Below are positions 8,108 through 12,986 of a DNA stretch of 64,000 nt, piece by piece. A program made the translations under genes and the position numbers. This stretch comes from Candidatus Omnitrophota bacterium. Lineage in GTDB: Bacteria; Omnitrophota; Gorgyraeia; Tantalellales; Tantalellaceae. The stretch's first letter is position 1. Every line of letters begins with the position of its first letter. The notes beneath the pieces were generated by a model, which saw only the letters and a list, made by a program, of their open reading frames with translations, was not told the origin of the DNA and searched no databases. The stretch covers positions 4,337 to 68,336 of the forward strand of contig JBDRBY010000001.1 in assembly GCA_043822245.1 (NCBI GenBank). Direction: 5' to 3'.

Positions 8108-8306
8108 TAAATAGGGACGTTTTAAATAGGGACGTCACCCATTTATTCACCCATTTATTTGAGACGCGATAAATCGCGTCTCTACGTTATTGGTTTCTTT
8201 TTTAAATAGGGACGTCACCCATTTATCGTTAAATAGGGACGTCACCCATTTATTCACCCATTTATTTGAGACGCGATAAATCGCGTCTCTACGTTATTGG
8301 TTTCTT
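8108..8306. repeat. Tandem duplication of a ~95-bp unit. Each unit has two copies of AAATAGGGACGTCACCCATTTAT plus the perfect 22-bp palindrome GAGACGCGATAAATCGCGTCTC. This is iteron-like and sits upstream of the merR-parA-pil operon.
   Basis: Read directly. Unit 2 overlaps the last codons of yggS, so unit 1 is a duplication of the yggS 3' end region. The palindromes are at 8161-8182 and 8268-8289. Confidence 0.85.
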
Positions 8307-8962: not shown

Positions 8963-9618
8963 CTTGCTATAAGCCTTTGCGGTTTTTTATTTTTGGTATA
9001 ATCTCTCGGGCCGCATATTTTTTTCATATCACTCAGGCGGCCGCGCTGTTTTAAACGGTCATAAATTTCCAGCCAGGCGCAGTCCATATCTTTGTCAATT
9101 TCGCATTTCCCCCGTTTGGTTCCGCCGCATGGCCCGTTTACCAAACCTTTGGCACAAGATGTTACAGGACAAATTCCGGCTGTTTGCGAAAGCAGGCATT
9201 CTCCGCACAAAGAGCATTTTTGAGAAAATTTTATTTGTTTCAAGTTCGCTTCAATAATCGCGCCTTGAAAAAGTGTGTCATTGCCGGGAAGTACCTGCTT
9301 TTCCGTAACCTTGGCGGCAATAATTTGAGTTCCCCCTCCGCACGCGAAACTCAAAATCACGTCGGCATTATCTATCAGGGCTTGCTCTTTCCGGTAAAAC
9401 CTTTTTACTTCTACCGCGCTGCATGCGGGGTCCAAAACCGCCATTCCCAGAACTGAAATCTCTTTATCCAAAAGTTTTTTTGCCATGGCCTTTAGCTCCT
9501 CCTCTCCGCCCGTCTTACACGTAGAGGCGCAAACGGCGCATCCTGCTAAAAAGACCTTCGCTCCGCGCTCTATCTTTTCTGTTATTTCCGCAATGGGTTT
9601 TTGTTTTGTGACGATCAT
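8959..9618 (-). CDS. Cys-rich putative Fe-S/Zn-binding protein (MTHFR C-terminal-like / CCG-like domain)
   Basis: Multiple CxxC/CGG motifs (GCAVCASTC, FACGGGT, CSLCGECLL, NGPCGGTKRGKC) and an overlap with the yggS start. Function is not inferable from the sequence alone. Confidence 0.4.
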   Translation of the reverse strand: MIVTKQKPIAEITEKIERGAKVFLAGCAVCASTCKTGGEEELKAMAKKLLDKEISVLGMAVLDPACSAVEVKRFYRKEQALIDNADVILSFACGGGTQIIAAKVTEKQVLPGNDTLFQGAIIEANLKQIKFSQKCSLCGECLLSQTAGICPVTSCAKGLVNGPCGGTKRGKCEIDKDMDCAWLEIYDRLKQRGRLSDMKKICGPRDYTKNKKPQRLIAR

Positions 9619-9840
9619 GATTTAAACTTTTTTTAGGCAAGTGGAAAAAGCCTGTCATTTATGTTTATCCCTTTACCGGTCGGTACCTTATCAGCTCCCT
9701 TGGGCGGCTGTGTCCATATCCTGATGTCTATCACGTCATTGCCTGAAATTCGGATACGCGCACTTTTACATCTTGATATTTGTTTTTGGCGAATACCGCT
9801 ACATCCTTTTCCATATATTCCTCCTAATTTCACGACAGCC

Positions 9841-9868
9841 CATAGCCTGGGTTTAAACCCAGGCTATG
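9841..9868. promoter_or_regulatory. Perfect 28-bp palindrome CATAGCCTGGGTTTAAACCCAGGCTATG (candidate operator or protein-binding site; no flanking U-tract)
   Basis: Read directly. It is located immediately upstream (on the minus strand) of a strong AGGAGG SD. Confidence 0.5.
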
Positions 9869-9944
9869 AACTACCACCAGAGACCCTCAATATCAATAAT
9901 ATACGCGATAAACCCAAAATGCAAAAAAACTGAGAAAAAAGATC

Positions 9945-10049
9945 TTAATCCATTCTTTTTTTTTGAAATATTTTAAAAAAACAAAACACCGCCAGCCCTA
10001 AAATCAAAGCCCACGACAACAACATAAACACCCATCCTAATAAATTCAT
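9945..10049 (-). CDS. Unannotated 34-aa single-TM peptide (MNLLGWVFMLLSWALILGLAVFCFFKIFQKKRMD) translationally coupled to the NSS transporter; candidate small transporter subunit
   Basis: ATG at 10049 lies 3 nt after the TAA stop of the NSS gene (TAACCTATG). There is a hydrophobic core and a basic C-terminus, and the ORF runs to a TAA at 9945-9947. It is too short for the 60-aa track cutoff. Confidence 0.5.
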   Translation of the reverse strand: MNLLGWVFMLLSWALILGLAVFCFFKIFQKKRMD

Positions 10050-10052
10050 AGG

Positions 10053-11621
10053 TTAGTTTCCCTCTTTTTCATTTACCCTTCGTTTTCCCCAGGCAAGTTT
10101 TACCATAATTGCCAGGGCGAGAAACAGTAGGCATAGGCAAACACGGGTTATTATCACGTAAATTTTATTATCCGCGGGCACGTTATCCATCCGCAGAATC
10201 GGAAGCCATTCTTGAAAAACCCACGCGGCAAGTACTGCTATCAGGAAGGCGGGGGTAACGTATTTGATGACATATTTATATGCTGCTGGTATCTTCATAT
10301 CCGCGCCGTGATGCACTTCTTCCCACGCTTTATTTATGCCGAATACCCATCCGAAGAGTATCACTTCAACCGCGGCAAAAAGCACTAAGCAAAATGTCCC
10401 GCCCCAGAAATCTAACTCATCAACGACACCTTTACCGAGGAAAAATATAACAGCGTTACACAATATAAAGGTGACTGCTCCAAATATCGCTACAGCCCTT
10501 TCCTTTGATACCTTGAATTCATCCTCCAAAAACGCGACCGCGGGCTGTGCCAGAGACACCGACGAAGTCACACCCGCGAGGAACAAAAGGCCAAACCATA
10601 AAAAACCAAAGAGTTCAGGCAAAGGCATCTGTTTGAAAATAAGCGGCATTGAAACAAAACCCAGATTAAACGCGCCTGAATTGGCGATATCTCCTATCGC
10701 CATGGGCCCGAAAAAAACAAACGCCGCCGGTATTACTATGCTGGCGCCAAGCACAACTTCCGCGATTTCATTCATGCTTACCGCGGTAAGGCCGGACAGC
10801 GCGACATCATCACCTTTTTTTAAATAACTGGCATATGTCAATATCACGCCAATCCCCACGCTTAGGGTAAAAAATATCTGCCCGGTCGCGGCAAGCCAAA
10901 CTTTCGCGCTTTTAAGAAGTGAAAAGTCAGGGTTCCACAAATATCCAAGCCCACCCGAAACATTCCAATCCGGGTTCGCGTGGTCTAAAACACCGAGAGT
11001 TAACACCCGAATAACCAGCACAATGCCAAAAATAAACAATGTCGGTACCGCGATTTTGCAAAATTTTTCTATCCCCCCGCGTATCCCATGTTTCAGAATA
11101 ACCATGTTGATCGCGAAAGTCATAAGGAAAAATACGTATGCTGGAAGTATGCTTGAAAAATGTTGATTTTTTTCTAAACCCTGAAACCCTCGCAGGAAGG
11201 CCTGCATGGAGGCTTGGCCGGCTATATTCGAATATTTTTGTGTTAAAGAAAAAAAACTATACGCCAAAGTCCAGGACTCAATATAGGTATAATAAATCAT
11301 AATGACAAGCGGACCGAATATACCTATAACACCGAAATATTTGATAAACCTGTTCTTTTTCCAAAGGCTGTGAAAAACACCGGGCGCGCTCGAGTGGCCA
11401 AAACCACCGCCATAACGCCCTATTGCCCATTCAACCCACATAAGAGGAATCCCTACCAAAAGAAGCGCTATGAAATAAGGTATCATAAACGCGCCGCCGC
11501 CGTTTTTCGCGGCTTGTACCGGAAACCGCAAAAAATTTCCTAATCCCACGGCTGACCCCGCTACCGCCATAATAACCCCCAAACGCGATCCCCATAAATC
11601 CCGAGGCTTCATGTTACTCAT
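10053..11621 (-). CDS. Sodium-dependent transporter of the neurotransmitter:sodium symporter (NSS/SNF) family
   Basis: N-terminal NSS signature GSAVGLGNFLRFP...GGAFMIPYFIALLLVGIPLMWVEWAIGRYGG; ~12 TM helices; 522 aa. Confidence 0.85.
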   Translation of the reverse strand: MSNMKPRDLWGSRLGVIMAVAGSAVGLGNFLRFPVQAAKNGGGAFMIPYFIALLLVGIPLMWVEWAIGRYGGGFGHSSAPGVFHSLWKKNRFIKYFGVIGIFGPLVIMIYYTYIESWTLAYSFFSLTQKYSNIAGQASMQAFLRGFQGLEKNQHFSSILPAYVFFLMTFAINMVILKHGIRGGIEKFCKIAVPTLFIFGIVLVIRVLTLGVLDHANPDWNVSGGLGYLWNPDFSLLKSAKVWLAATGQIFFTLSVGIGVILTYASYLKKGDDVALSGLTAVSMNEIAEVVLGASIVIPAAFVFFGPMAIGDIANSGAFNLGFVSMPLIFKQMPLPELFGFLWFGLLFLAGVTSSVSLAQPAVAFLEDEFKVSKERAVAIFGAVTFILCNAVIFFLGKGVVDELDFWGGTFCLVLFAAVEVILFGWVFGINKAWEEVHHGADMKIPAAYKYVIKYVTPAFLIAVLAAWVFQEWLPILRMDNVPADNKIYVIITRVCLCLLFLALAIMVKLAWGKRRVNEKEGN

Positions 11622-12018
11622 AGCCCACCGGACCTCTCAGCTTTTTCTTTTTCGCTCTCTGCCTCTTGTTTTCAAGCATCTTTTCCTTGGCGCGTTTTGA
11701 ACGTTTCCTTTTTTGCCTGCGAATTTTTTCTATTTGTTTTCTCTTCGCCGAAACTTCACCGGTTACCGCATTTTCGATTTTTTCAACCAGTCTCCCGCGC
11801 GCCAAAAAACGATTAACCGCCTGGGATCTTTCGCTGGAGCATTTAACCTCAATTCCCGTTGGATTATGTTTTAGATAAACACAGGTAGAGACTTTGTTGA
11901 CATGCTGGCCACCACAGCCGGAGGATTTGATAAAACGCTCGGTGAGGTCACTTTCTTTTACTCCCCACCCGCGCATCTTTTCTTCAAGCGCCTTTTTTTT
12001 CGCGGACGAAACATTCAT
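11614..12018 (-). CDS. arfB: Alternative ribosome-rescue factor ArfB (peptidyl-tRNA hydrolase, RF-1 domain with GGQ motif and basic tail)
   Basis: GCGGQHVNKVSTCVYLKH plus a Lys/Arg-rich C-terminal tail; ~134 aa. Confidence 0.8.
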   Translation of the reverse strand: MNVSSAKKKALEEKMRGWGVKESDLTERFIKSSGCGGQHVNKVSTCVYLKHNPTGIEVKCSSERSQAVNRFLARGRLVEKIENAVTGEVSAKRKQIEKIRRQKRKRSKRAKEKMLENKRQRAKKKKLRGPVGYE

Positions 12019-12038
12019 TAGTTCACAGGAACCTGTTT

Positions 12039-12986
12039 TTATCTGTTAAAGCAGGCGTCGACAAGATCTTCAAGCTTTGCTGTTGCTAAACACTGCACCG
12101 TGTCAGCTCCGCCGTAATAGATCTTTACTTCTCCCGTGTCTTCTAAAACCGCGCCGCATGTAAAGACTACCGCGTATGTAAGGCCGTTCAGTTCGTAATC
12201 CATACACGGGGAAAGTATCGGCGCTTTCGCGCGGGCAATTATTTTTGACGGATCTTTTAAATCAAGAAGCATAACTCCTAAGTGATAGACGTACTGCGCG
12301 GCACACTGCACGTTAACCGCGTGGTATATGACAAGCCACCCTTTGTTTGTCCGAATGGGCACGGCCCCGGGCCCGTTCTTTTTCCAACCCCATTCATCTT
12401 GTGTAGTGGCAACAGCCTTTGACTGCCCCCAATGTATCAAATCAGGAGAATATGATACCCATATGTATCCTTTTCCATCACCCGTGTTCGGACGATCAAG
12501 CCGGCAGTAAAAACCATTTACTTTTTCGGGAAAGAGAACCCCATTACGGTTATCTGTCTCTGAAATAAATCCTTTCCAGATAAACTGGCGCATATCCGGC
12601 GATTCCATAAGGCCAAGCCGGCATGAATGCCCGCTATGGCAGGCAAATACCAGATAATATTTGCCTTCAATCCTTGCCACTCTCGGGTCGTAGTACATAC
12701 CAGCGGTGTATTCTTTAAATTCATCCGTATCAGGCATTTTAATCGGTTCCGGGCGTAGTTTAAAATCGATACCGTTATCAGAATCCGCGGGCCAGATAAG
12801 CTGTTTCATGGAAGGAGTCTCCACACGGCATAGCATTACATATTTACCTTCAGGGGTTTTTATGCATCCGGAGTTGTACACTCCCTTCGCGGCGACTGGA
12901 ATATCATCTCTGGTGAGAATAGGATTTCCGGGATAACGAACAACAATATTTTCTTTATTTTTTGGGTAAATAACAGGCTGTGTCAT
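12039..12986 (-). CDS. Glycoside hydrolase family 130 (beta-mannoside/mannooligosaccharide phosphorylase-like)
   Basis: GH130/DUF377 five-bladed-propeller signature segments (GVYNSGCIK, LVFACHSG, GVMLLDLKDPSKIIARAKAPILSP); ~315 aa. Confidence 0.7.
   Translation of the reverse strand: MTQPVIYPKNKENIVVRYPGNPILTRDDIPVAAKGVYNSGCIKTPEGKYVMLCRVETPSMKQLIWPADSDNGIDFKLRPEPIKMPDTDEFKEYTAGMYYDPRVARIEGKYYLVFACHSGHSCRLGLMESPDMRQFIWKGFISETDNRNGVLFPEKVNGFYCRLDRPNTGDGKGYIWVSYSPDLIHWGQSKAVATTQDEWGWKKNGPGAVPIRTNKGWLVIYHAVNVQCAAQYVYHLGVMLLDLKDPSKIIARAKAPILSPCMDYELNGLTYAVVFTCGAVLEDTGEVKIYYGGADTVQCLATAKLEDLVDACFNR

Follow-up and report, generated by a model that had tools for sequence, protein, structure and literature searches.

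A conserved single-helix peptide encoded directly behind LeuT-type transporters, probably a small partner subunit

The window (the whole analysed stretch of 64,000 nucleotides, from a Candidatus Omnitrophota genome) carries a very short open reading frame (ORF) directly behind a gene of the NSS/SNF transporter family. The locus raises the question of whether this ORF encodes a real peptide and, if so, whether the peptide belongs to the transporter as a small subunit, in the way that MetS belongs to its carrier. LeuT is the template for most mechanistic thinking on neurotransmitter:sodium symporters, and it is well studied as a lone transporter. The peptide is probably a small partner subunit of LeuT-type transporters, and is best read as a new and uncatalogued example of the small subunits of NSS transporters, one that is particular to the LeuT clade and occurs across phyla. 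No new principle is involved, yet the observation bears on the model system of the NSS family.

The small ORF and its partner transporter

The small ORF is located on the minus strand at positions 9945..10049 (ATG at 10049-10047, TAA at 9947-9945) and consists of 34 codons followed by TAA. The product, a single-pass membrane peptide of 34 residues (MNLLGWVFMLLSWALILGLAVFCFFKIFQKKRMD, window translation), comprises a hydrophobic helix at residues ~5-25 and the basic tail KIFQKKRMD. The preliminary description had given a 34-residue ORF opening 3 nt past the transporter TAA, with a hydrophobic helix and a basic cytoplasmic tail. The ORF is present, its translation is exactly as quoted (the strand being minus), and the position of the tail agrees with the charge bias of the whole peptide family towards the C-terminal side. 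The ORF had also been called unannotated, and the exact peptide sequence was indeed not found in a collection of 15 billion proteins, although the transporter is present there (recorded as NCBI MFH1797735.1, from a MAG of Candidatus Omnitrophota). The peptide is therefore not recorded as a called protein for the window sequence.

The gene preceding the small ORF, at 10053..11621 of the minus strand, encodes an NSS/SNF transporter of 522 residues (PF00209, E=8e-58), the presumed partner of the peptide. Like LeuT, it extends over all 12 helices: residues 7-519 align with residues 5-512 of Aquifex aeolicus LeuT (PDB 2a65/3qs4) at E about 1e-150 and ~57% identity. The assignment to the NSS family, already proposed in the preliminary description, is confirmed by this end-to-end alignment, which places the transporter in the LeuT clade. 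The protein shows 12 hydrophobic segments, TM12 included. Since the transporter is already of full length and of LeuT type, the peptide would be a 13th helix.

The junction between the two genes (10050..10055, minus strand) is formed by the transporter stop codon (10055-10053) and a 3-nt spacer, and reads TAA-CCT-ATG. A Shine-Dalgarno-like AGAGGG, read from the sequence, is located at 10060..10065 on the same strand, within the last codons of the transporter and 10 nt before the peptide ATG. For the related loci (n=111) the junction offset is -4 (an ATGA overlap) in 57, -11 in 14, and 0 to +4 in ~15 cases. A Shine-Dalgarno core is found at -20..-4 in 83 of the 111 loci (75%), compared with 12% of control windows within the transporter gene. 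As both the motif and the start/stop overlap are conserved, tight co-translation of the transporter and the peptide is credible, and the translational coupling suggested earlier can be upheld at this strength.

The linkage of the two genes was followed in two samples. The genome scan with the window transporter returned 80 loci, and the peptide is encoded directly downstream, on the same strand, in 49 of 79. LeuT itself, used to scan metagenomes, led to 80 further loci (77 evaluable); the same arrangement is found in 68 of the 77, with transporters 50-66% identical to LeuT. When both samples are pooled, the peptide directly follows the transporter in 117 of 154 LeuT-clade loci from many phyla, and no peptide ORF is found downstream in the remaining 37. 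The adjacency is kept in Omnitrophota, Ignavibacteriota, Acidobacteriota, KSB1 and others, while the other neighbouring genes change.

In contrast to the window transporter, which has the peptide gene behind it, the six loci nearest to Aquifex LeuT (75-88% identity; L095-L099 and L145, metagenome) have no such ORF downstream. The gene that follows the transporter in these loci is SppA-like in two (L095, L098), and encodes a different multi-helix membrane protein in four (L096, L097, L099, L145). To explain the distribution of the peptide on a neighbour-joining tree of the 154 transporters, it must have been gained or lost no fewer than 10 times, and the peptide-free transporters share 71-79% of their residues with relatives that have the peptide. 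A search for a MetS-like peptide in the loci devoid of the peptide family gave no match; in the peptide-free lineages the gene could sit elsewhere in the genome. The peptide is strongly tied to the LeuT clade and is dispensable in some lineages. It cannot be universally required, because of the 37 loci without the ORF, its absence behind the LeuT-nearest transporters, and the study of LeuT alone.

Most of the 50-66% identical relatives of LeuT thus share their locus with a conserved one-helix partner, unnamed in databases. When LeuT-clade transporters are expressed in another host without the peptide, the native carrier may not be reproduced, and the peptide offers a concrete way to study the action of accessory helices on the LeuT fold.

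The peptide family and its relation to MetS

A search through all 1.84 billion representative proteins yielded 88 representative homologues (clusters) of the peptide at E<=1e-3, nearly all of them 31-60 residues long and with the alignment starting at residue 1. The consensus of 192 unique members is M..GWIFM.LSW..IL.L..FCF.K(I/V)F.KK, with conservation of 97% at W13, 95% at C23, 91% at F8, and 79% at L19. The C-terminal tails vary, and some are long and charged. The database members show no Pfam domain and are either unnamed or called 'hypothetical protein'. For three homologues, chosen solely by their similarity to the peptide, the gene in each case overlaps the end of an upstream PF00209 gene (519-535 aa) by 4 nt, and all their other neighbours differ between the contigs. 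The peptide is a member of an uncatalogued family of small membrane peptides, which is widespread and stands outside every protein-family library; annotation pipelines gain with it a missing gene family, which counts 88 or more clusters at 50% identity. Some carriers seem to be cultivable (the locus of a Melioribacter roseus MAG, L076, encodes a 52-residue version).

The preliminary description had pointed to MetS as a small accessory subunit described for bacterial NSS-family importers. MetS is the small subunit of MetPS, the methionine/alanine NSS importer of Corynebacterium glutamicum. For MetPS, Trotschel and colleagues reportedly found in 2008 that MetS co-purifies with the transporter and is needed for its activity. 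Passages of PMC3219685 and PMC2807442 cite MetPS as a two-subunit NSS carrier (Trotschel et al. 2008, doi 10.1021/bi801206t), and a literature search turned up no small subunit of an NSS transporter other than that of MetPS.

In general architecture the window peptide resembles MetS: both are single-helix peptides of 30-60 residues, encoded in the same orientation directly downstream of a PF00209 gene, which they often touch or overlap. MetS-like genes annotated by PGAP are found behind other NSS genes in Priestia megaterium, Acinetobacter baumannii, and Peptoclostridium acidaminophilum. The transporters that carry them have 12 hydrophobic segments, as does the window partner; a distinction in which MetS types replace a missing TM12 and the window peptide adds a 13th helix was rejected, since the MetS-associated transporters examined are complete in this respect. 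The window transporter differs from the MetS partners in belonging to the LeuT clade, and is ~31-34% identical to transporters carrying MetS-like genes. The peptides themselves differ as well. The hallmarks of MetS are a mid-helix W-G-G-(L/A) and a start of the M-x-x-S-(A/S)-(I/V) type, whereas the peptide family is devoid of WGGL and is characterised by F8...S-W13...F-C23-F followed by K/R, an MNTSA-type start being present in a subset only.

The MetS-like families are described by the models NCBIfam NF033493 and NF033494 and Pfam PF16951 (MaAIMP_sms). The window peptide matched nothing at E<=1 against NF033493 and PF16951. For alignment A1 (the window peptide with 88 relatives, 89 sequences) the best value was E=0.093, with NF033493 and for one sequence of the 89, and PF16951 matched none of the 89; for four distant family members nothing was found at E<=10. 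The curated MetS cut-off is reached by 0 of 93 peptides, while the P. megaterium and A. baumannii proteins used as positive controls pass it (E=5e-15 and 5e-14 with NF033493, 6e-7 and 3e-11 with PF16951). As judged by the MetS models, the peptide is an analogue of MetS and not a member of the MetS family. The earlier reference to MetS thus stands as an analogy of position, size, and architecture. By the same analogy, the peptide may work functionally like MetS.

It is possible, although we regard it as rather doubtful, that the peptide is a very divergent MetS homologue (NF033493/PF16951), a branch beyond the reach of the present models and of no new kind, which would serve LeuT-type carriers as MetS serves MetP. 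Such a relationship would agree with the identical gene position, size, and architecture. The hhalign comparison with a shallow MetS-like alignment (6 sequences) is ambiguous: it gave a probability of 61% for alignment A2 (P=8e-5) and 24% for A1, at an identity of 11-16% and with the hallmark residues displaced against each other, the family W13 being placed against Met and the MetS WGG against I-x-L. One MetS-like protein of the Acinetobacter type scores 16.5 bits on the HMM of the peptide family, compared with at most 9.9 bits in 1000 shuffles, and 29% of the family peptides outscore all 20 of their own shuffles on a MetS HMM, where ~5% would be expected. The two MetS-like proteins from Firmicutes, on the other hand, score no better than shuffles. 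The resemblance to the Acinetobacter type is weak, position-specific, and mainly N-terminal, following MNTSA(L/I)I(F/M)M: the peptides of two loci (L127 and L128) begin with MNTSALIFM, to be compared with MNTSAIVML and MNTSAIIMM in the Acinetobacter MetS-like proteins (L088:2695-2838), and the rest of the helix differs. Single hydrophobic helices are easily spuriously alike. The HMM of the peptide family also matches TM12 and the basic tail of transporters (E=1e-8 to 1e-10; 2e-8 and 2e-10 in L049 and L080), which cautions that an HMM overrates single helices.

Predicted topology and proposed role

The net charge of the regions flanking the helix, averaged over 192 unique peptides, is +0.1 on the N-terminal and +2.5 on the C-terminal side, from which the positive-inside rule predicts an N-out/C-in orientation. 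Conservation along the helix is periodic, with a moment at 100 degrees of 8.07 compared with 3.86±1.93 in permutations (p about 0.025). The conserved face is formed by F8, S12, I16, L19, and C23, with W13 beside it. Because the conservation is one-sided and has α-helical periodicity, the helix is likely to be packed against a partner.

We consider it likely that the product is a bitopic N-out/C-in peptide, made together with a LeuT-type symporter, onto which it packs as a 13th-helix accessory subunit. Given the adjacency of the genes, their translational coupling, and the one-sided conservation of the helix, co-translational assembly is the likeliest mechanism. The peptide and the LeuT-type Na+/amino-acid symporter would be read from one mRNA, with the ribosome either initiating at the Shine-Dalgarno sequence buried in the last codons of the transporter or re-initiating at the overlapping stop and start. 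The shared mRNA would keep the two products matched in place and amount. The peptide would then insert with its short N-terminus outside, a single helix across the membrane, and the basic C-terminal tail in the cytoplasm, and the conserved face (F8, S12, W13, I16, L19, C23) would pack on the lipid-exposed surface of the 12-helix transporter. As an accessory subunit outside the catalytic core, the additional helix may stabilise the transporter or tune it; such a non-catalytic role is suggested by the existence of near-identical transporters without the peptide. Physical binding, the binding site, and a functional effect on the transporter are what we infer from these features.

Covariation between the peptide and the transporter was calculated as mutual information from 111 pairs, a set without power (Neff about 42), and showed a signal splitting the clades only, with no interface. 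No natural fusion of the transporter and the peptide was found in the family search of 1.84 billion representatives or among the transporter loci. Two apparent fusions, in L049 and L080, were rejected, as the HMM match corresponds to the transporters' own TM12 with its basic tail. The resemblance of TM12 to the peptide (in these two loci, and in the window at 10056-10130) could be a matter of composition, or could hint at an origin of the peptide from a duplicated TM12.

Accessory helices of this kind have parallels in other systems. Collectrin and ACE2 are single-pass partners of B0AT1/SLC6A19, a eukaryotic SLC6 carrier. By analogy, the peptide would resemble them in placing one transmembrane helix of a separate polypeptide outside a LeuT-fold transporter, in support of expression or function. 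The comparison is functional only, since collectrin and ACE2 are type-I glycoproteins of large size that show no sequence relationship to the peptide, and their genes do not form an operon with that of the carrier. Among bacterial proteins, MctB is listed with MctC as a transporter subunit (PMC2807442), and AcrZ, KdpF, and MgtS are reviewed as small-protein modulators of transporters (PMC12648545). The likeness would be that of a small bitopic peptide, often missed by annotation, which binds a polytopic transporter and stabilises or tunes it; these four, however, belong with other transporter superfamilies and their sequences are unrelated. The same 2025 review of bacterial small membrane proteins (PMC12648545) makes no mention of NSS, LeuT, or MetS.

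A bolder version, which we hold only tentatively, is that the peptides form an independent, non-MetS family in stoichiometric complex with 12-helix LeuT-type transporters, in most of the bacterial phyla that have them. If this is true, the best-studied clade of bacterial NSS transporters would be natively two-subunit, with Aquifex LeuT as the exception. The 13th helix would then modulate the conformational cycle or the oligomeric state, and the peptide would correspond, in bacteria, to the single-pass partners that mammalian SLC6 carriers have.

An improbable alternative is that the peptide is a small membrane protein acting independently of the transporter (in membrane stress, toxin-like, or as a regulator of another protein), and merely shares the operon. 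The repeated loss of the gene from loci in which the transporter stays would be compatible with such independence, and the variable, sometimes long and charged C-terminal tails could contact other partners. Against it stand the adjacency to one transporter clade, kept across phyla while all other neighbours change, the overlap of stop and start as the norm, and the finding that all three homologues picked by peptide similarity alone adjoin an SNF gene.

Coding character of the ORF and its surroundings

The preliminary description had named as a check whether a small ORF is conserved 3' of orthologous NSS genes, and the outcome was decisively positive. A homologous ORF directly follows the transporter in all 30 Omnitrophota-type loci with retained downstream DNA, and is exactly 34 codons long in 29 of them and 29 codons long in one. 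The mean pairwise identity is 0.67, 0.78, and 0.41 at the first, second, and third codon positions, respectively. With pN of 0.27 against pS of 0.83, the median dN/dS (unsaturated pairs) amounts to 0.17, whereas the ratios in the two shifted frames are 1.0 and 1.3, and stop codons are present there. Synonymous sites are nearly saturated across the orthologues, yet the frame and the length are kept. The small ORF thus has the marks of a coding gene: selection is purifying in its own frame and in no other, the length is kept, and a ribosome-binding site is present. Judged on sequence data, it is a translated gene selected for its amino-acid sequence, because of the conservation of the ORF and its length, the dN/dS value, the Shine-Dalgarno core, and the ATGA overlap.

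The same data bear on the very improbable case in which translation of the ORF alone matters, by acting on the mRNA 3' end, a hairpin, or control of the next gene, and the peptide itself is irrelevant. A strong hairpin does follow the ORF: a near-perfect palindrome of ~19 bp (9834..9875, minus strand; core CATAGCCTGGGTTTAAACCCAGGCTATG) lies between the peptide stop and a PC4-like gene, in a 133-nt spacer with an MFE of -41.7 kcal/mol (z = -3.65). The PC4-domain gene is moreover syntenic downstream in Omnitrophota. These features are outweighed by the selection on amino acids, with W13, C23, and F8 near-invariant across phyla at saturated DNA divergence, and by the variation of the downstream genes between lineages. 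The hairpin is followed by no U tract and was not reported by the terminator scan; without the U tract it is not a canonical intrinsic terminator, and it may form the transcript 3' end of the transporter-peptide unit or act as a stabiliser. Promoter and terminator scans remained at background level, and an Rfam scan of 9000-12500 matched no RNA family.

A homopolymer near the 3' end had been thought to make the reading frame error-prone. In the coding sense the run is A9, on the plus strand T9 (9956..9964, feature on the minus strand); it lies within Q-K-K-R of the cytoplasmic tail, which is spelled CAA AAA AAA AGA at codons 29-32 of 34. In the orthologues the same KK(K) stretch is written with a mixture of AAA and AAG codons, and the ORF ends in the same frame with KK(x)(V/L/M/I)D and the stop codon. 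The window tail, which ends in QKKRMD and the stop, is in frame with this conserved C-terminus. Since the frame after the run gives the C-terminus of the family, the comparison with the orthologues shows nine to be the right length. A run of 8 or 10 would change or extend only the last residues and leave the helix intact. The concern is therefore unfounded, and a collapse of the ORF at a different run length, also raised earlier, cannot arise, because the run lies past the helix.

That the ORF arose by chance or from a miscalled homopolymer, to which the AT-rich region with its A9 run and a gene close by that a one-base difference in a G run has broken might point, is effectively refuted by the 30 of 30 Omnitrophota loci, the dN/dS of 0.17, the 88 representative homologues, and the family C-terminus reproduced after a run whose length could not remove the ORF.

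The broken gene is the PC4-domain gene itself (9633-9814, minus strand), the next one after the peptide. It is intact in 18 Omnitrophota loci, where it is syntenic and 77-80 residues long (PF02229, E=2e-10 for an orthologue). The window copy is one base short in a G run near 9742 (CAGGCAAT in place of the orthologues' CAGGGnAAT) and is also devoid of ~60 nt for the C-terminal helix; either the gene is decaying or the assembly is wrong at this point. The shortfall in the G run is an instance of the run-length differences that do occur in the window sequence.

On the other side of the transporter, an RF-1-domain gene (ArfB-like, with the GGQ motif; PF00472, E=5.6e-23) is located at 11614..12018 on the minus strand. 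Its stop overlaps the transporter start by 8 nt, and both genes probably belong to one transcription unit. An ArfB-like gene is an unusual operon partner for an amino-acid transporter. Farther downstream of the peptide gene, the intergenic region 8203-8289 contains a 24-nt direct repeat (TAAATAGGGACGTCACCCATTTAT, at 8203-8226 and 8230-8253, with a partial third copy) and, after it, a GC-rich palindrome (GAGACGCGATAAATCGCGTCTC, 8268-8289).
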